Virus record (IMG/VR): IMGVR_UViG_3300045993_000169 | Span: 1 to 55,093 of that record | DNA: 55,093 bases | Strand: one strand, 5' to 3' | Source of the DNA: a virus | Taxonomy: Duplodnaviria; Caudoviricetes | Shown: piece after piece, positions 324 to 32,630 of the stretch | Layout of the letters: every line of letters begins with the position of its first letter | Numbering within the stretch: position 1 is the first letter of the stretch | The notes under the pieces: model-generated | Seen by the model: only the letters and a program-made list of their open reading frames with translations | Database searches by the model: none | What the model was told of the DNA's origin: nothing | Position numbers and translations under genes: made by a program

Positions 324-3056
324 TTACCCTCCTTCACTTAGTGATGTCTTCAATGTAGTAACAGACACACCCAAAGCAGAAGCAATCTCTGCCTGTGTTG
401 CACCATTCTTTGCCATTGCCCTAGCCCTTGACTGATTAGCTGTAGTCATTAGAACCTTAGCCCTTGGTGTAGCCAACTGCTTGATCTGATCTAGATCAGC
501 ATTGTCAAGGATCTTATCCAACCTATCACGACTAATAGCACCAGCCTGTATAGCAGCCCATTCACTATCTGTTAGTACTATCTTAGGCTTCTTAGCGCCT
601 GTCCTAGTACGGGCAGTCTCAAGGGCCATGTACTTCATCTTCTTCTTCTCAGAGTTCTCCATGTCCTTGTTAGAGTCTATCAAGGCTTGGATCTTGGCCC
701 CTGCTATGACCTGGGCCTGTCTTTCAAGGGGGCTGTTTCTTTGGGCGAGGATCAGTTTGGCATTGAGGGAGGCTACTTCAGTAGCATAGGCGGTCTTAGC
801 AGACTTGTTTACTTTGGTAGGGGGGGTATTAATCATCTCTAACCTAGCCATGTTGGCAAGGCCCTTCATCTTGTTAGAGTGATCAGCATAGACCCTCTCT
901 ATAGGGGTGCCTTCATGATTAGGCCCTGACAATAGGGTACGTGCATCAGTAGTCTCAACTAATGCCTTTGATTTCTGGGTGGGGTACTTAACCTTCTCTG
1001 TTACCACACCTGTTCTCTTGTTAGTGGTAGTCCTAACATAAGACTCGCCTGTTGGCACAAAGATTAAAGCACCAGTCTTGCGATCTATAGGACCGCCATC
1101 TTTTGCTGATTGGAGCTTGTATTTAGGAACATCTACCCTATGCCTAGCCCTAGAGATCAGGGTTGCAGCACCTGCATTAGCCTTGCCCTGATACTTAGTT
1201 TTGAGTTGAGCAATCCCATTGTCTACAGCAGACTGTTTGTAGTTGAGGTTATGCTTCTCAGCATCGATGACCACCATTGAATGCCGAACTGCTCGAGCAA
1301 GCTCGGTTGGCGTTGCGCCCATGATAGTCATGTCTGTAATGAGGTTAGAAACAACACCCATTTGAACGCCCTTTGTATGGACGCTCATAGGCACCATGCC
1401 TTCATAAGCAGGATACTTGTCTTTAGGGTTGAAGTTCTTCAGTCCTGCCAATGCTGGTGCAGTCTTGACACTACGACTGTTGTTTGGGATGACAAGAACT
1501 GTGTCACCATCGAAGTCTGCCCCAGAAAGGCGCTCTGCTACCTTCGAGTTGATACCAATCGCATCTGATGCAGCACCTAGAAGCTTCTTTGCATCAGGCT
1601 GCCTGTTATTGACAATCAGTTCTGGGATCTCGAAGATACCACCATGAGGAAAGCGAATTAGAGCAACTCGTTCTCCATCATTGAACTTGGGGGCATAAAC
1701 TTCGTTATCCTTCATCTTGTTTACAGGGAGAATAACATGTGTTCCCTGTCTTGGCATGGCTGCTGCTTTAAGATGTACAGCCGATGAGTCTGCTGAGTCT
1801 GCATAAGACTTAAGCAACTTGACACGAACAGCAGCATTCGTCAAGGATGATATTTCATCAAGATCAAGCGTCTTTTTCTCGAAAGTTTTGGCTAGCTGTG
1901 CCTTAGCAAACTCGGTGTTCTGTTTAGAGAGCATCTGAGAGGACAAGCTTTTTGACCATTTCTCCCATTGACCTTCATCATTGACAATGTTCATCGCAGA
2001 GCGAACGGTGTGGGGGATTTCTGCACCGTTTTCATCAAGCTTCTTAAGCTGACGAACAACAGCGCCAAATGGATTTGCCTCGTCCATCTTTCCTGTTTTT
2101 TTGTCGATCTTGATTGGCTTCATGGCATCATGCTTATCGCCAGTATCACTCTTGTTCGTGTTGAACATGAGATCTACACCTTTAGGCAGGTCATCTTTGA
2201 ACATGGCCATACCTTTAAGGTAGTGCGTACCGTCAACAGCGATACGAACCTGAGCATAGTTCTTTCCGCCTAAAGAAAGATCGTCTACATTACGACGAAC
2301 ATAGACAACACCATCAGCATCAGAGCCACCTTGTTCTGCATATCGGATCTTAACCCGACTTGATGAAACTGATATTGGAGGCTCAATTCCTGACCAAGAA
2401 AGGCCGTTGTCCTCAGTGAACTCCATAAGCGGCTTGATCTTGCCGATGTCTTTCGCAATGTCGGCATACGTAGTTCCCGGAACAGCAAGACAAGTAATCG
2501 TCGTCTTGTTTGTGGTCCCAAGCTGATCTACCTGAACCTTTGTGCGGTAGTATCCCTTTTCCTGTAGGACAGCAACGGCTTTGTCCAACTTATCTCGACT
2601 AACACCAAGAATATGGTGTTCAACGCCAGCACCAATATCGACTACACCTAAAGCATCAACTTTGTCTTTCAACATGTTCGCTGTGGACATGAGTTGATCA
2701 GCCTTGAGCTTTGTAGAAGGATCACGAAGAGCACGAACCGAAGATTCGTTAATACCCATCTGTATACCAATGGCCATGTTGCTCATACCACTGTCATGCA
2801 GTTTGTTAGCCATAGAGATATCCGCTTGCTTCTGAGCATTCTTGTAAATCGACTTCTTTGCCTGAAGCTCAGCCCTTGACATATCCATGCCTTTAGCAAT
2901 CTGAGTATCTGTTAGCCCTTGCTTGTGCATTCCCTCAACGTAGTCAAGAAAGCTCTTGTTGCGCTGAGTCTCTGTATCACCACTACCCCAAGGATAACGA
3001 CCAGACTTGTGGAGAGTGCCGATGTGGGAAAGGTAGTTCTCTTCAGAAATTATCAC
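324..3056 (-). CDS. putative single-chain two-barrel (DPBB) DNA-dependent RNA polymerase, YonO/cellular-RdRP-like, with HTH domains
   Basis: GADFDGD (ADFDGD at nt 1503-1520) preceded by LIRFPH; DG..QVR..LKG motif; HSMVVIDAEKH resembles RdRP HS.AVDFPK; HTH-like segments at both termini. Confidence 0.8.
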   Translation of the reverse strand: MIISEENYLSHIGTLHKSGRYPWGSGDTETQRNKSFLDYVEGMHKQGLTDTQIAKGMDMSRAELQAKKSIYKNAQKQADISMANKLHDSGMSNMAIGIQMGINESSVRALRDPSTKLKADQLMSTANMLKDKVDALGVVDIGAGVEHHILGVSRDKLDKAVAVLQEKGYYRTKVQVDQLGTTNKTTITCLAVPGTTYADIAKDIGKIKPLMEFTEDNGLSWSGIEPPISVSSSRVKIRYAEQGGSDADGVVYVRRNVDDLSLGGKNYAQVRIAVDGTHYLKGMAMFKDDLPKGVDLMFNTNKSDTGDKHDAMKPIKIDKKTGKMDEANPFGAVVRQLKKLDENGAEIPHTVRSAMNIVNDEGQWEKWSKSLSSQMLSKQNTEFAKAQLAKTFEKKTLDLDEISSLTNAAVRVKLLKSYADSADSSAVHLKAAAMPRQGTHVILPVNKMKDNEVYAPKFNDGERVALIRFPHGGIFEIPELIVNNRQPDAKKLLGAASDAIGINSKVAERLSGADFDGDTVLVIPNNSRSVKTAPALAGLKNFNPKDKYPAYEGMVPMSVHTKGVQMGVVSNLITDMTIMGATPTELARAVRHSMVVIDAEKHNLNYKQSAVDNGIAQLKTKYQGKANAGAATLISRARHRVDVPKYKLQSAKDGGPIDRKTGALIFVPTGESYVRTTTNKRTGVVTEKVKYPTQKSKALVETTDARTLLSGPNHEGTPIERVYADHSNKMKGLANMARLEMINTPPTKVNKSAKTAYATEVASLNAKLILAQRNSPLERQAQVIAGAKIQALIDSNKDMENSEKKKMKYMALETARTRTGAKKPKIVLTDSEWAAIQAGAISRDRLDKILDNADLDQIKQLATPRAKVLMTTANQSRARAMAKNGATQAEIASALGVSVTTLKTSLSEGG

Positions 3057-3878: not shown

Positions 3879-3935
3879 GAGAGCCTCCTATCCAAAAATA
3901 GAGGAAGAGTAAGCAGGCTTGCTTTCCCTCCATCT

Positions 3936-3960
3936 ATTATAGTCCGCGAATTTCGTGCGT
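3936..3960 (-). promoter_or_regulatory. variant copy of phage promoter motif upstream of the nuclease-RNAP operon
   Basis: ACGCAC-N13-TATAAT, same spacing as the other copies. Confidence 0.55.
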
Positions 3961-3968
3961 GATAATAC

Positions 3969-4493: not shown

Positions 4494-4821
4494 TTTAAGT
4501 ATTTAAGTATTAACTCCATTATTTCGTCAAAAGAAAAACTTCATATACAGACCTTAATACTTATTCCCTATATGCATTATAAGTATTAAAGAAGAGATTC
4601 TGAGAAAGTATTAGGGCTGTTTTTGACAGATTTGGCAGAGGCGCTTTTTGGTATAATGCCTGCTCAGAGGCTTATAGCCCCTTTTTTGCTCTGCCAAATC
4701 TGAAATGGTTTTTTTTCGACCCCATTATACGTAGTCTAGAAACCAGTATTAATACGTAAAAAGAGAGGCTCGGGAAAGACCTCTCTTCAAAACCATTTCA
4801 GATTTGTCCTCAGATTTGTCC
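4494..4821. other. AT-rich intergenic region with nested inverted repeats, candidate replication origin
   Basis: IRs 4554-4564/4579-4589, 4627-4640/4689-4702, 4695-4712/4789-4806; CAGATTTG core 4 times. Confidence 0.5.
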
Positions 4822-9042: not shown

Positions 9043-9079
9043 TTCGATTTCCTTTCAATTGGTCTGTGTGAAGGGTCTC

Positions 9080-9104
9080 ATTATAGGGGAGGATTTTCCT
9101 GCGA
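9080..9104 (-). promoter_or_regulatory. phage promoter motif
   Basis: TCGCAG-N13-TATAATGAGA. Confidence 0.8.
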
Positions 9105-9269
9105 CTCCAGATATGCGAGCGTCTTGAGCTCTTCGATCCTACATAGAGCACAGACGTCGATTCTTTCCCCATCAACAGTTGCACAGTCTTTGATATCAAG
9201 GATCTTGAAGCAGAGACAACACATGAACTTCTTCGGGTTGTAGTCAGCCCATTGTGTAGGATATGGCAC
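9081..9269 (-). CDS. small zinc-finger protein
   Basis: CCLC..CALC; its stop codon lies within the promoter TATAAT. Confidence 0.6.
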   Translation of the reverse strand: MPYPTQWADYNPKKFMCCLCFKILDIKDCATVDGERIDVCALCRIEELKTLAYLESQENPPL

Positions 9270-9493
9270 TACTCCTCCTTAGGCTCTTCTATGCAGTAGA
9301 GTCCGTCTTCGGGATTCAGAGCGAAAGACTTCATTGTCATGGTTACTTTGACTCCAGTAGAAAAGCCTTCCGCAATATCTTCTGTGTTGAAGAGAAGATC
9401 GCTCGTCTTGTAGAAAACGATCTTTTGAGTCTTACCAGTGCCAAGCTGTTCGACAGTGATAACGATTTTCTGGTATGGAACTTGATCGTCCAT
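9269..9493 (-). CDS. hypothetical protein
   Basis: AAGGAGG RBS, coupled. Confidence 0.65.
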   Translation of the reverse strand: MDDQVPYQKIVITVEQLGTGKTQKIVFYKTSDLLFNTEDIAEGFSTGVKVTMTMKSFALNPEDGLYCIEEPKEE

Positions 9494-9729
9494 CAGTTAC
9501 TCCTCCTTGGCGGCGCCCACTTTGGGTCGTACATTGTTGCAGCAGCTTTTGATGGACACATGAATGATCCTGTGCAACGAAGTCCTGTGGTCTGACTCTT
9601 GTGCTTACGAATCATTCCGTCGCTATTCCGTACGGCGATGTTCTTCCCACACTCACAGCAATAGCCAAACATTGTGCTTGGCAAAGCAGTTCGATTCACC
9701 TTTGGCGTTGGTGATTTAGCAAGCCTCAT
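9493..9729 (-). CDS. small zinc-finger protein
   Basis: CxxC..H..CxGS pattern. Confidence 0.65.
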   Translation of the reverse strand: MRLAKSPTPKVNRTALPSTMFGYCCECGKNIAVRNSDGMIRKHKSQTTGLRCTGSFMCPSKAAATMYDPKWAPPRRSN

Positions 9730-29547: not shown

Positions 29548-30333
29548 TCAGTGAATCCGGTGGTAATCCCTTACCGGAGCAACTCGGAACTCAATTGCAA
29601 TGCAAGGACGCTGGTCATCAGACAGAGTTCCAGTGAACTTGCACTCTAACGGCTTCTCACTTGTCCAACCGACTTCATCAGAATATGCCGTCGTGGCAAG
29701 TCCGATGTTGTCGTAGAAGTCGCCGAGAGATGCGTAGCCATCGCTCAGCATTGTGTAATTGATGTCGTTCTGAGCCTTCTTGAGCGTCTCCATGTCACTC
29801 GTGAAATATCGCCCAGAGAAAGAGTCGAAACAGAGGACTTCGCCGTTTCCTGTGATGATGACCTCACGATCACCGACAGGATTCCGACGAACCTGATCTT
29901 GCATGACTTCATCGTGGATCTTCTGTTCCTTGCCCTGACCGATTTTCTCGACGACCTTTTCCTTGTATTCGGTGAAGGCCTTCTCGGAGATGGAGTATGC
30001 GGCAGCCACCGCAGCAGCCCGACGTGTTCCGATACGGTTGGCGCCGATGATGCACACTACGGTCGCGACAACCGTACCAATCGCTGGGATGTACTCCTTC
30101 CATACGAGGACGATCTTCTCCTTGGGCTCCAGAATATGGGGCGGGTTGCCATTTGCACTCTTGCTGATTCGATACTGCTCATCTGCGATGATCTCGACAG
30201 CCTTGATAGTTGCCGTCCCCGTAAGGAAAGCCACACCAAGCGTTCCTGTGACAGCGACAGCAGTAAGAATCGCAGGCGAGTGGTCAATCGCCAGTTTCTC
30301 AACTCGTTTTGCTACCTCAACAAACGTAGTCAT
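29548..30333 (-). CDS. conserved membrane-associated protein (DUF6353-like)
   Basis: HSPAILT TM, AAAY, SGRYF, GW; paralog of 22671..23579. Confidence 0.7.
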   Translation of the reverse strand: MTTFVEVAKRVEKLAIDHSPAILTAVAVTGTLGVAFLTGTATIKAVEIIADEQYRISKSANGNPPHILEPKEKIVLVWKEYIPAIGTVVATVVCIIGANRIGTRRAAAVAAAYSISEKAFTEYKEKVVEKIGQGKEQKIHDEVMQDQVRRNPVGDREVIITGNGEVLCFDSFSGRYFTSDMETLKKAQNDINYTMLSDGYASLGDFYDNIGLATTAYSDEVGWTSEKPLECKFTGTLSDDQRPCIAIEFRVAPVRDYHRIH

Positions 30334-30574: not shown

Positions 30575-30978
30575 TTCGAATTCGGGTAGATCGTCCTTAC
30601 AATCCCAGAACCTGCGATGAGTTTTGCGCAATCTTTGCAAGGCTCACAGGTGACATAGATAGAGGCACCAACAAGTGATGTCCTCGCATAGAGAAGGGCG
30701 TTGGCTTCTGCATGGATGGATACGCAGTTGTCGTATGCCGATAAGGCACTGACGTCATCGTAAGACATCCGACCTCGTGGGCAATGACCAGCAAGACATC
30801 CCGGCATCCCAGAGGGAGCACCGTTATATCCTGTCGAGAGAATGCGATGACCGGCATCGACAATAACAGAGCCTACTTGTCTTCGGCGACAGTCGGCTCG
30901 TAGTGAAACTGCGTCAGCGAGGTTCAGGAAGTATGCGTCCCATGGTGGGCGATAGTCATCCACGACGACGCATCTCAC
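30571..30978 (-). CDS. dCMP deaminase
   Basis: GYNG, HAEAN, PCxxC motifs. Confidence 0.9.
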   Translation of the reverse strand: MRCVVVDDYRPPWDAYFLNLADAVSLRADCRRRQVGSVIVDAGHRILSTGYNGAPSGMPGCLAGHCPRGRMSYDDVSALSAYDNCVSIHAEANALLYARTSLVGASIYVTCEPCKDCAKLIAGSGIVRTIYPNSK

Positions 30979-31078
30979 GGACGAAGATCCAGATGAGCCA
31001 TAGACCTCCGGTGATGGTAGTCAGGACGACATCGAGGATGAAGTTCCAGAAGCCGTAGCGACGACGATTGTTTGCCAT
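30956..31078 (-). CDS. small membrane protein (40 aa, not in ORF track)
   Basis: MANNRRRYGFWNFILDVVLTTITGGLWLIWIFVREMRRRG; AAGGAG RBS. Confidence 0.7.
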   Translation of the reverse strand: MANNRRRYGFWNFILDVVLTTITGGLWLIWIFVREMRRRG

Positions 31079-31108
31079 TGTGGTTCTCCTTCAGAGTTGG
31101 TTAGGCAG

Positions 31109-31208
31109 AAAAAAATGAGAACCTATGACTACATCTAGTAGGACGTGTTCGTTGCAGTAACGGACAACGTCAGACTCATTGCGGTAACGGGCCCATAGGG
31201 TTCTCATT
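31109..31208 (-). ncRNA. candidate promoter-driven small RNA with two CCGUUACY loops
   Basis: terminal IR AATGAGAACC(C)TATG followed by U7; 15-nt internal repeat. Confidence 0.6.
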
Positions 31209-31230
31209 ATAGGGGGTGACTTTCTTGCGA
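31206..31230 (-). promoter_or_regulatory. phage promoter motif
   Basis: TCGCAA-N13-TATAATGAGA. Confidence 0.8.
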
Positions 31231-31261
31231 GGTCAAAAATGAAACCACATACATTGCTCGC

Positions 31262-31354
31262 GTGTACCATCAAAGACGATTTTTGCACGGAGTTAGGTGT
31301 GCCATTATAAATGACTTTTGCACCGCAGTGTACCATCAAAGACGATTTTTGCAC
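31262..31354. repeat. three 27-bp direct repeats inside a candidate small RNA (31236-31370)
   Basis: 31262-31288 and 31328-31354 identical, 31297-31323 diverged. Confidence 0.8.
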
Positions 31355-31371
31355 TGACTATGTGATTCCAA

Positions 31372-31464
31372 ATAATGAGAGAGAAATCTGATATGGTTCG
31401 GTGTCGTAGTGTCACGTCTCCGAGTGGTGCCGTAGTGTCACGGCTCCGATTTCTCTCTCATTAT
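31372..31464 (-). ncRNA. candidate small RNA with twin hairpins closed by a 17-bp IR
   Basis: IR 31372-31388/31448-31464; 24-nt repeats 31400-31423 and 31426-31449. Confidence 0.6.
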
Positions 31465-31484
31465 AGGGGGTGAAATTCTCGCGA
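31460..31484 (-). promoter_or_regulatory. phage promoter motif
   Basis: TCGCGA-N13-TATAATGAGA. Confidence 0.8.
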
Positions 31485-31486
31485 GG

Positions 31487-31882
31487 TTAAACGGTCCCCA
31501 ATCCGATGATCTCGTAATGAAGACCTTGAAGATGATCGGTATGCCCATTCAGATGCTTTGACATTACCGTCACAGCGTTGCCGGTCTCTTCCGCACAATC
31601 TTTGACTGTCTCCCAAATTTGATTCGTCTCAAGACACTTGACGAACTTATGGGCATACCCACCAAGATTCACATTGTTCGAGACTGTTATGACCGGTGCT
31701 ATAACGGGTGCTATAACAGGCGCGATGACAGGAGCAACCGTGTTAACGATCTGGGTTGAAGTCTGATTAAACTTCACGAAAAGCAAAGTCCCAGCGACGG
31801 TAACTGCAGCAGTGACACCGATCGCAATGTAGACGTTCTTGTTCTCTTGGAAATGCGTCTTGATCTTGTCACGCTGGGCCAT
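31487..31882 (-). CDS. membrane-anchored protein with NUMOD1-like DNA-binding domain
   Basis: TM helix, (APVI)x4 linker, VKCLETNQIWETVKDCAE; start uncertain. Confidence 0.6.
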   Translation of the reverse strand: MAQRDKIKTHFQENKNVYIAIGVTAAVTVAGTLLFVKFNQTSTQIVNTVAPVIAPVIAPVIAPVITVSNNVNLGGYAHKFVKCLETNQIWETVKDCAEETGNAVTVMSKHLNGHTDHLQGLHYEIIGLGTV

Positions 31883-31925
31883 GTTCAACAATGTATCTTC
31901 CCCTTCGGTTTTGGGTGGGCGAGGC

Positions 31926-32064
31926 AAAAAAATGAGATCGAGGTAAACGCTCCAACTAAAAGCGTTTCGTTAACTAGCTGTTTGTACCTTGCTAGCACAT
32001 CAGGTAGGATTCGAACCTACACATTAGTGTCTTGATCTCCGGGTTTGCACCAGAGCTCTCTCTC
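31926..32064 (-). ncRNA. candidate structured small RNA containing a tRNA T-arm
   Basis: GUAGG-UUCGAAU-CCUAC at 32004-32020, further hairpins, closing stem followed by U7. Confidence 0.6.
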
Positions 32065-32089
32065 ATTATAGGACGAGTAATTCCTGCGA
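32065..32089 (-). promoter_or_regulatory. phage promoter motif
   Basis: TCGCAG-N13-TATAATGAGA. Confidence 0.8.
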
Positions 32090-32389
32090 GGGATAGCGAA
32101 TCATGAAGGCTGGTTTACACTTTCCGCGCTTTGAAAAACCAAACTTCTCGTAGAGTTCCTCAAGTTGAGTATCGTTCAATGTAGTTTGTATTGGGTGGCC
32201 ATACCGCTGAGCAGAGAGCGTAAGTGTAAAACCGTGCTTATCAGCATACTGAATGACCTCGTCTAAAACAGCATTCGCTTGCCCCTGATGCCTAACAGGA
32301 GACCACAGACTCGACACAGAATATAGATTAGGTTCGATGTAGATGAGTCTGACTGAAGCTTGACCGTTCTTAAACTCTATGGGTTTCAT
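32066..32389 (-). CDS. GNAT-family acetyltransferase
   Basis: RHQGQA motif A, LYEKFGF. Confidence 0.75.
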   Translation of the reverse strand: MKPIEFKNGQASVRLIYIEPNLYSVSSLWSPVRHQGQANAVLDEVIQYADKHGFTLTLSAQRYGHPIQTTLNDTQLEELYEKFGFSKRGKCKPAFMIRYPSQELLVL

Positions 32390-32413
32390 GTAGTCTCCTT
32401 ACACGAATATGAC

Positions 32414-32446
32414 AAACCTTAAGCCCCAGTAAAGGGGCGTCGGGTT
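32414..32446 (-). terminator. cassette-type terminator
   Basis: GCCCC/GGGGC hairpin within AACC/GGUU. Confidence 0.65.
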
Positions 32447-32630
32447 AGAGGTCCAATGCTTCAAGTGCGGTTTTGAACTTGGATACGGTCTTGCTCGTCT
32501 TCTTCTTCATGTCGTCCAACTCGGCCTGCATCTTCTTGGCTCCAACCAGCATAGTTACTAGTGTGGCGCTCGAGACGATGAGGCTGAGTGACGAGACAGT
32601 GATGAGGGCGACGGTAGTCGATGTATTCAT
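32445..32630 (-). CDS. cassette gene, small membrane protein
   Basis: GAAAGG RBS, hydrophobic N-terminus. Confidence 0.7.
   Translation of the reverse strand: MNTSTTVALITVSSLSLIVSSATLVTMLVGAKKMQAELDDMKKKTSKTVSKFKTALEALDL

Follow-up and report, generated by a model that had tools for sequence, protein, structure and literature searches.

The 55,093-nucleotide stretch analysed here (the window) is the IMG/VR virus record IMGVR_UViG_3300045993_000169, from a soil or wetland phage, with an estimated completeness of 93% and a GC content of 49%, and every long open reading frame (ORF) in it lies on the - strand. Its interval 31109-32089 holds three copies of a conserved promoter, four folded segments that we call M1 to M4, and a protein-coding gene, ORF146. 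We read this interval, tentatively, as a cluster of small structured RNA genes in cassette form, its four modules being distributed over three transcription units. The gene order of the window agrees with that of Streptomyces phage Bing and Gordonia phage Tanis (cluster DJ, Deejayvirinae): structural genes, a run of small genes, DUF6353, primase-polymerase, helicase, exonuclease and a terminal polymerase of about 910 residues. The minor tail protein matches proteins of Streptomyces phages (Bing and others) at no more than 58% identity, Arthrobacter phages being matched too, and a blastn search with the whole interval against cultured phages gave no match.

The promoter pattern, CCTATAATGAGA with at most one mismatch, occurs 14 times in the window, always on the - strand, against a chance expectation of 0.34; with its flanks it has a consensus of about 30 nucleotides, tCGCaGG-N12-TATAAT-GAGA. 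Ten of these copies stand between 31.2 and 35.3 kb, each after the hairpin or T-rich tail of the preceding cassette. At 11 of the 14 a short leader runs to a ribosome-binding site (RBS) and ATG within about 20-35 nucleotides. The copies at 32072, 31467 and 31213 have no RBS and ATG after them; folded segments of 83-137 nucleotides follow instead; an earlier note made from the DNA letters had described such segments. Located by motif search and flank alignment, these three copies with their flanks occupy 32061-32089 (TCGCAGG..TATAAT GAGA, for M1), 31456-31484 (for M2 and M3) and 31202-31230 (for M4), all on the - strand. The same note had put the segments in the slot used by protein cassettes, and this holds: the modules are non-coding, structured and promoter-proximal, within an array of small-protein cassettes. 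A generic promoter and terminator scanner missed both the phage promoter and the long-range stems described below, and its single + strand hit was below chance.

All four modules share one outline. The bases that open the module behind TATAAT (GAGA...) form a stem with those at its end (...UCUC), beyond which a U-tract usually begins at once, and the minimum free energy (MFE) fold of every module places this closing stem around two to four hairpins, which bears out the earlier claim that the segment ends base-pair. M1 (31934-32064, - strand) is a predicted RNA of 131 nucleotides, supported by its fold, a match of 85.9 bits to covariance model R1, family covariation and stops in three frames. 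Fold and covariation give its outer helix P1, in which 32064-32061 pairs with 31937-31934, and a pseudoknot joining 32028-32024 to 31959-31955; the inner elements are an extra 5' hairpin, P2, the J2/3 junction, P3 (32020-32004), P5 and P6. After P1 the sequence shows an A+U7 tract (31926-31933), a terminator-like tail. M2 (31377-31459, - strand; 83 nucleotides) has a 12-bp closing stem around two hairpin units, at 31447-31426 and 31421-31400, and contains GGAGNCGUGACACUACGNCACC twice. M3 (31241-31369, - strand; 129 nucleotides) begins 7 nucleotides past M2 without a promoter of its own, the two forming one transcription unit; its 11-bp closing stem holds three GUGCAAAA-stem-ACAC hairpins (31356-31326, 31324-31296 and 31289-31261), two of them identical over 27 nucleotides, and is followed by an AUUUUU tail at 31240-31235. 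M4 (31117-31205, - strand; 89 nucleotides) has a closing stem round three hairpins, carries CCGUUACYGCAA twice (31190-31179 and 31163-31152) and ends in an AU7 tail at 31116-31109. The loops of the repeated hairpins are ACAC in M2, UUU or UAU with an internal loop CAAAA in M3, and ACCGC or ACUGC in M4.

Two further claims of the earlier note agree with this anatomy: three modules display a motif of their own in two or three copies (two in M2, three in M3, two in M4), multi-copy hairpins recurring in other phages, and three of the four (M1, M3 and M4) end in a U-tract, M2 ending in AUUAUUU only. In the MFE folds no local terminator hairpin stands ahead of the U-tracts, which are preceded by the long-range P1 alone. 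The note had missed ORF146 within the interval, the joining of M2 and M3 in a single unit, and the genes after M1 and M4, each of these two modules preceding an RBS and a gene that has no promoter of its own.

Compared with dinucleotide shuffles the folds have z-scores of -2.25 (M1), -5.51 (M2), -2.13 (M3) and -2.77 (M4), with 4, 0, 7 and 3 of 200 shuffles, respectively, folding equally well or better. M1 and M3 contain stops in all three sense frames. An 87-residue ORF with a GTG start (31091-31354, - strand) spans M3, the promoter and M4, its repeated peptide deriving from the M3 units; it is probably no gene, because it has no RBS and contains a promoter. Rfam 15, a check that the earlier note had proposed, assigned no family to any of the four modules, giving no match in the window at gathering threshold and none at E<=10 over 30900-32200, and in the loci of 11 relatives (137,645 bases) it found transfer RNAs (tRNAs) only. 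We found no report of these RNA families in the literature searched, which was mostly open-access and without supplements. The hairpin motifs occur nowhere in the window outside the modules, and 11-mers antisense to the phage's own sense strand gave 4 matches where 5.1 were expected, which is chance level; together these results make a partner that is a protein or a ligand more likely than base-pairing to mRNAs of the phage.

Relatives were collected in two ways, via the DUF6353 protein and via the promoter pattern (at least 116 stretches), and together with the window the resulting 124 loci amount to 1.15 Mb, some of them sharing part of the same contig; loci are labelled L004, L050 and so on. 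A scripted survey of this set covered 341 promoter copies, 226 with an RBS and ORF and 115 without. A closed module, defined here by a stem of 6 bp or more whose first paired base is the G directly following TATAAT and whose far end precedes a T-rich tail, follows 65 of the 115 non-coding copies and 7 of the 226 coding ones. Removal of duplicates left 61 modules with a median length of 87 nucleotides. Seven of these 61 contain internal repeats of at least 15 nucleotides, whereas none of 305 shuffles and none of 221 coding segments does. After ...UCUC comes A in 20 of the 61 and T in 29, so pairing into TATAAT is not general. Downstream of the 61 modules lie an RBS and ORF without a promoter (30), a promoter (13), other elements such as RNA modules or tRNAs (17) or the end of the locus (1). 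Throughout the relatives the modules are framed exactly by promoter and U-tract and always lie on the gene strand, and some are bare hairpins of 30-50 nucleotides directly after the promoter.

The strict promoter expression overlooked further tandem-hairpin cassettes in two loci, which were read by eye. Locus L098 carries, at 9075-9615, four successive promoter-to-terminator cassettes without an ORF: three tandem-hairpin RNAs, each with two copies of a 31-40-nucleotide hairpin, and then a member of the M1 family; the locus has five consecutive promoters, the fifth lying inside a homologue of orf146. Locus L050 has three RNA cassettes in a row ahead of its orf146 homologue, including homologues of M2 and M3. 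In both runs each RNA cassette precedes the next promoter, except the last (M1-type in L098, M3-type in L050), which leads into the ORF146 homologue. L028 carries three head-to-tail units of 29 nucleotides. At L010 (5455-5762) and L007 (2639-3193) the promoter drives a closed module, in L010 one of 128 nucleotides with a 14-bp closing stem, and then tRNA-Leu(UAA) and tRNA-Lys(UUU), just upstream of orf40 and DUF6353.

Cassettes also change places. The order of modules differs in L050, L098 and L032, and four DNA metagenome runs that contain part of the window between 30500 and 33000 supplied contigs for comparison with it. Contigs from two wetland runs join 31016 to 31201 through 195 other letters, replacing M4 between orf40 and the promoter, and a contig of 1171 nucleotides from a fourth study keeps M1 while the upstream ORF107 cassette (32092-32467) is replaced by 193 letters. 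Replacement at promoter boundaries in these related contigs is, as their alignment reads, cassette exchange between close relatives, in line with the swappable set that the earlier note had proposed.

In M1 the conserved structure comprises several helices and a pseudoknot. Alignment of 13 homologues, by RNAalifold and by reading, supports P2, P3, P6 and a pseudoknot between a conserved junction (ACGAA or ACUAA) and the P6 loop (UUCGU or UUAGU), with 92.9% of cells paired and double-sided changes in 17 of 23 pairs. A covariance model built without the pseudoknot matched about 19 contigs of the first relative set; a strict core pattern then found 60 IMG/VR stretches, on which the model matched 69 places, 57 of them distinct. 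Across these 57 sequences the family has four covarying helices and the pseudoknot, pairing holds in 95.4% of cells and double changes affect 18 of 23 pairs; none of 500 shuffles reached the observed value and slid controls were 31-46% paired. The centre pair of the pseudoknot, which formed no part of the search model, is G-C in 35 sequences, U-A in 14, C-G in 1 and another combination in 6, and all 14 sequences with U at the junction position have A in the loop. In a divergent member (L022) junction and loop are complementary over 7 bp. Stops interrupt every frame in 9 of the 13 homologues. G-U pairs are frequent in the stems of M1 and of the M3 units, which indicates a - strand RNA and not DNA. 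An ACAC/GUGU hairpin that we had considered within M1 was rejected, A38 standing opposite C in 5 of 13 sequences, and an alternative extension of P3 covaries. Two loci have weaker second matches to the M1 model upstream of the strong copy (L078 11160-11271, 30.9 bits; L005 4636-4743, 21.5 bits), which may be diverged paralogues.

M1 is, by this covariation, a member of a new structured RNA family and not a tRNA. The earlier note had seen a tRNA T-arm here, and the sequence it named, GUAGGUUCGAAUCCUAC at 32020-32004, is indeed present; it is the P3 hairpin of M1, a variant of a hairpin conserved across the new family, and the naming as a tRNA T-arm finds no support in that form. In a comparison with the GGUUCGAAUCC-type loop the window reads UUCGAAU, a canonical form shared by 4 of the 57 distinct members, and the family's P3 is a 5-bp stem with a 7-nucleotide loop whose first base is U and fifth base A in 45 of 57. 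As a tRNA the module was rejected: ARAGORN predicted no gene in the window, and the Rfam tRNA model gave no hit over 30900-32200, either at gathering threshold or at E<=10. This also bears on the notion that the modules act as DNA, as origin iterons, recombination sites or an attP-like tRNA fragment, or are decayed genes for tRNAs or small proteins. The direct repeats and the tRNA-like T-arm sequence would fit such a history, as would the 87-residue ORF running through M3, promoter and M4 and the tRNA genes that occupy the same slot in L007 and L010. Against it, the compensatory changes and G-U pairs are strand-specific, the framing by promoter and U-tract is exact and always on the gene strand, neither ARAGORN nor Rfam finds a tRNA, M1 has stops in all frames, the ORF lacks an RBS and contains a promoter, and no integrase occurs among the window proteins scanned, a scan that covered part of the ORFs. 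We therefore regard this explanation as highly improbable.

The M1 family also reaches cultured phages. It is present in 20 GenBank/RefSeq records (17 phage names) of Gordonia cluster-DJ phages, never with an annotated feature beneath it; in Tanis (NC_048817.1) it lies at 29823-29947, between gp36 and gp37. The first recognizable gene downstream of M1, scored in 52 cases, is orf40 in 22 (at a median of 48 nucleotides), DUF6353 in 17 and orf146 in 5, with none in 8. In the window M1 precedes orf146, and M4 occupies the place before orf40.

M2 and M3 have fewer relatives. An M2 homologue with both hairpin units is found in L050 and a weak one in L086; the M2 unit pattern recovered L050 only from IMG/VR, and in 596 Gb of genomes one single-copy hit (a high-GC Streptomyces contig), at or below chance. 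M3 has homologues in L098, L050 and L032. Eight M3 units from three phages keep GUG, the AAAA internal loop, a bulged A and CAC, with double-sided changes in 4 of 6 pairs of the inner stem and 5 of 11 pairs of the whole unit, and 90.9% of cells are paired compared with 25-53% in slid controls. A covariance model of the M3 hairpin unit (R2) returned its training units and weak matches only, in L006 (16.6 bits) and L032 (16.2 bits), so the M3 family is narrow; a loose expression for M3-type hairpins gave mostly noise. In the other phages the stems of M2 and M3 covary while loop and internal-loop sequences are kept, which, at the level of sequence, is selection for RNA structure. The covariation check suggested in the earlier note thus comes out in favour of conserved structure for the M1 family and the M3 units, with M4 lacking a homologue.

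This conservation has consequences for another explanation, that the modules are passive punctuation (promoter-terminator couplers, insulators or 5' stabilizers) whose interior has no specific partner, the stem formed with the promoter's first bases blocking upstream read-through or shielding the mRNA 5' end. The bare hairpins after the promoter in some relatives and the U-tracts that adjoin the next promoter fit it, and promoter-terminator coupling is described as widespread in bacteria in the accessible part of one report (bioRxiv 10.64898/2026.08.19.745784). It leaves unexplained why 57 distinct sequences share the M1 fold and its pseudoknot, why loops are kept in the M3 units while stems covary, and why hairpin copies are nearly identical; we find it quite unlikely.

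The tandem-hairpin RNAs could also be mimics of a host immune RNA, either a type III antitoxin (pseudo-ToxI-like) or a CRISPR repeat (Racr-like), which would be a special case of a decoy acting in trans. Two to three near-identical units with a period of 26-35 nucleotides between a promoter and a terminator-like tail, the three head-to-tail units of L028 and the A-rich internal loop of the M3-type units are in keeping with this, and Racrs are promoter-driven solitary repeat units in phages according to the portion of the report at hand (PMC10651486). However, PADLOC and Pfam place no ToxN/AbiQ-like or other defence protein beside the modules, the M2 unit has just the one chance-level genomic hit, and the units sit inside a closing stem, an arrangement not known from ToxI arrays. 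Immune mimicry in this strict sense is very unlikely in our judgement.

Which polymerase reads the promoter matters for where the modules begin. The 910-residue ORF at 324-3056 (- strand) aligns along its entire length with phrog_4291 ('RNA-dependent RNA polymerase'; E = 0), carries an ADFDGD metal-binding motif near residue 520, and has a C-terminal helix-turn-helix (HTH) with hits resembling sigma region 4. A homologue lies at the same genome end in Bing (gp86), and one is present in 5 of 5 near-complete promoter-bearing relatives. By comparison with YonO of SPbeta, as far as the available text on that enzyme describes it (PMC5467207), a single-chain two-barrel DNA-dependent RNA polymerase of YonO type is the likely identity of the protein. 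Conservation of the promoter extends from about -25 to +11 in phages whose hosts are Gordonia, Streptomyces or unassigned, and it has no -35 element at sigma-70 spacing; for these reasons the phage enzyme may be what reads the promoter, possibly starting at the G after TATAAT. The genome notes on Vardy and Conley, in the parts accessible (PMC9671010, PMC10868162), assume the host sigma A holoenzyme for this promoter and mention only the motif and gaps. The phages that carry the cassette design are actinophage-like siphoviruses, which on the same analogy with YonO would encode a two-barrel RNA polymerase themselves. Elsewhere in the window (3880-3968, - strand) a variant promoter-like box (TTCGCGGACTATAAT) leads into a purine-rich start, then a short hairpin, UAUUUUU and an ORF, and may be another small leader module.

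Taken together, the data show the modules to be non-coding, strand-specific and conserved RNA structures, set in swappable cassettes that open with a promoter and close with a terminator-like end. As to what they do, we favour an RNA gene cluster whose tandem-hairpin RNAs act in trans, and give this reading, jointly with that of the interval as RNA-gene cassettes, a probability of roughly 0.45. Under it the closing stem and U-tract would end a share of the transcripts, yielding discrete, end-protected RNAs of about 85-260 nucleotides, and read-through would feed the promoter-less genes behind M1 and M4. M2 and M3, as stand-alone RNAs, would act in trans by presenting two or three identical hairpins as a sponge or decoy for an oligomeric RNA-binding protein of host or phage. 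M1, and perhaps M4, would be a structured RNA heading the orf40/DUF6353 block that acts likewise or gates its own terminator. M2-M3 make the best case for action in trans, since cassettes equivalent to them occur in RNA-only runs, and M1 makes the best case for the alternative, action in cis, since it sits in the leader position.

In that alternative all modules are cis-acting leaders or attenuators, in which the closing stem and U-tract terminate only when the enclosed domain is folded; a factor bound to the domain, a protein on the repeated hairpins or a protein or ligand on the M1 pseudoknot fold, would set read-through into orf146 (from M1) and into orf40, dCMP deaminase, DUF6353 and onward (from M4), the short RNAs being by-products. 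It accounts for M1 and M4, each ahead of an RBS and a promoter-less gene, for the 30 of 61 unique modules arranged alike in relatives, for the conserved M1 domain in a leader with the same few genes behind it (orf40, DUF6353 or orf146 in 22, 17 and 5 of 52), and for U-tracts that have only the long-range P1 ahead of them. It fits M2-M3 poorly, which are followed by another promoter, as are 13 of the 61 modules directly, and the RNA-only runs of L098 and L050 have nothing to regulate. The synteny of M1 and orf40 may merely reflect conserved gene order among relatives. We hold a purely cis role to be possible, if somewhat unlikely.

Several observations count against RNA genes acting in trans. 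The starts and ends of the transcripts are predicted from the sequence, and a sigma-70-type start 6-8 nucleotides after TATAAT would drop the GAGA and shorten the closing stems. About half of the unique modules (30 of 61) have an RBS and a promoter-less ORF behind them, as do M1 and M4 in the window; these modules stand as 5' leaders, for which a cis role is equally open; M1, at its median of 48 nucleotides upstream of orf40 (22 of 52), has the look of a cis-regulatory leader. Repeats are present in only 7-8 of the 61 modules, and M4 has no homologue in the 124 loci by blastn or nhmmer. Streptomyces phage Bing lacks M1, and behind its six promoter copies we saw no RNA cassette. Finally, at least four relatives (L004, L032, L034 and L098) have an in-frame promoter-like motif, closed module and U-tract inside a gene of the ORF146 family, so that architecture alone is no proof that a module is non-coding. 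At these places either the sequence serves two uses or the gene was assembled over the border of a cassette. In L098 (9700-9815) and L004 (5617-5760) the motif encodes ..AGxTxxIMRG.. and the U-tract ..FLS.., and in L034 two repeated hairpins inside the gene encode the repeated peptide GIQGVPE/GIRGVPD.

A decoy arsenal, the function put forward in the earlier note, is thus something that we infer. In its boldest form, a shuffling arsenal of end-clasped, RNA-only cassettes, displaying two or three identical hairpins (M2-M4 types) or the pseudoknotted, T-loop-bearing fold of M1, would titrate host RNA-binding defence or decay proteins, making the region an RNA counter-defence island exchanged through the shared promoter motif much as protein anti-defence genes are; that we consider unlikely.

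Known systems resemble parts of this design. CsrB and RsmZ sponges present several copies of one hairpin on a small RNA with its own promoter and terminator, and are the closest system for multi-hairpin display; the modules differ from them in having no GGA loops and only two or three copies. Type III antitoxin RNAs and phage pseudo-ToxI consist of tandem RNA repeats and offer the closest repeat layout, near-identical units in tandem between a promoter and a terminator-like end; here, by contrast, no toxin gene is adjacent (PADLOC, Pfam) and the units lie within a closing stem. Promoter-proximal regulatory RNAs include lambdoid nut/boxB, HK022 put, the pR'-tR' short transcript and riboswitch-type attenuators, and M1 and M4 are like them in placing a structured RNA right after the promoter, then a terminator, then genes. 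The modules depart from these leaders in lacking Rfam similarity, in a terminator stem that encloses the domain, and in cassettes that have no downstream gene. The bacterial Y RNA YrlA has a tRNA-like domain, and M1 shares with tRNAs and tRNA-like RNAs the paired ends round several hairpins, the T-loop-like P3 and, in relatives, a slot that holds real tRNAs; it differs in being unrecognized by ARAGORN and by the Rfam tRNA and Y RNA models, in having no anticodon arm, and in its pseudoknot between J2/3 and the P6 loop. RNA anti-CRISPRs, going by the part of the report available, are like the modules promoter-driven repeats of about 26-40 nucleotides that could titrate an RNA-binding immune protein (PMC10651486).

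For cassette logic the closest precedent is the PeSL cassettes of T4-type phages, where, in the sections accessible to us, a repeated promoter/terminator motif frames small cassettes in a plastic region and content is swapped at motif boundaries (PMC2839356, PMC4122927). Unlike the PeSL cassettes described there, some cassettes here are RNA-only and have no ORF, the terminator stem uses the first transcribed bases, and the phages are actinophage-like siphoviruses with a two-barrel RNA polymerase. Highly expressed non-coding RNAs are described for actinophages, in mycobacteriophage D29 and cluster A and in Rhodococcus phage WC1, in the available text of one paper (PMC10986025). They too are intergenic phage RNAs without an assigned function in phages of Actinomycetota. 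They lie at the genome ends or centre of cluster A/CA temperate phages, unlike the modules; that text reports no tandem-hairpin or closed-end design for them, and no relationship to the modules in sequence or position was seen, no search having been aimed at one.

ORF146 (31487-31927, - strand) is a real gene of 146 residues by the ORF list, a match to phrog_27818 (E 2.7e-7) and homologues in 8 loci, with a likely start at TTG 31891 or ATG 31882. It has an N-terminal transmembrane helix, four tandem 12-nucleotide repeats (31688-31735, - strand) encoding (APVI)4, and, over about 60 C-terminal residues, a weak resemblance to the HNH homing endonuclease I-HmuI in its DNA-binding HTH (1u3e, E 0.02, PDB profile). 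The small membrane protein orf40 (30956-31078, - strand) is the first gene after M4, with a strong RBS but lacking its own promoter; in relatives M1 has it as immediate downstream neighbour more often than any other gene. PADLOC gave no hit for orf146, orf107, orf40, orf72 or DUF6353 and matched the deaminase to its dCTPase model only, and Pfam found no ToxN/AbiQ/CptN-type toxin or other defence protein beside the modules. Away from the cluster, between the HNH endonuclease and helicase genes, an AT-rich stretch of 328 nucleotides without an ORF (4494-4821, - strand) contains several TATAAT-like boxes and a GC-rich hairpin with a T-tract behind it.

These results define at least three new phage RNA families, M1 with 57 distinct sequences and a pseudoknot supported by covariation, and the tandem-hairpin M2 and M3. 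It also brings out a general cassette design, found across a large group of actinophage-like siphoviruses, in which the first bases of the promoter serve as the 5' arm of the terminal stem, and links a promoter conserved from about -25 to +11 with what is probably a phage-encoded two-barrel RNA polymerase. Some of the 'gaps' in SEA-PHAGES annotations are thereby flagged as RNA genes, and since M1 is carried by 17 cultured Gordonia cluster-DJ phages, for which a laboratory strain serves as host, its expression, partner and deletion phenotype are directly testable. If the tandem-hairpin RNAs are decoys, RNA-based counter-defence would reach beyond CRISPR-repeat mimics; if they are attenuators, they would represent a new terminator design, with a sensor domain within the terminator loop.

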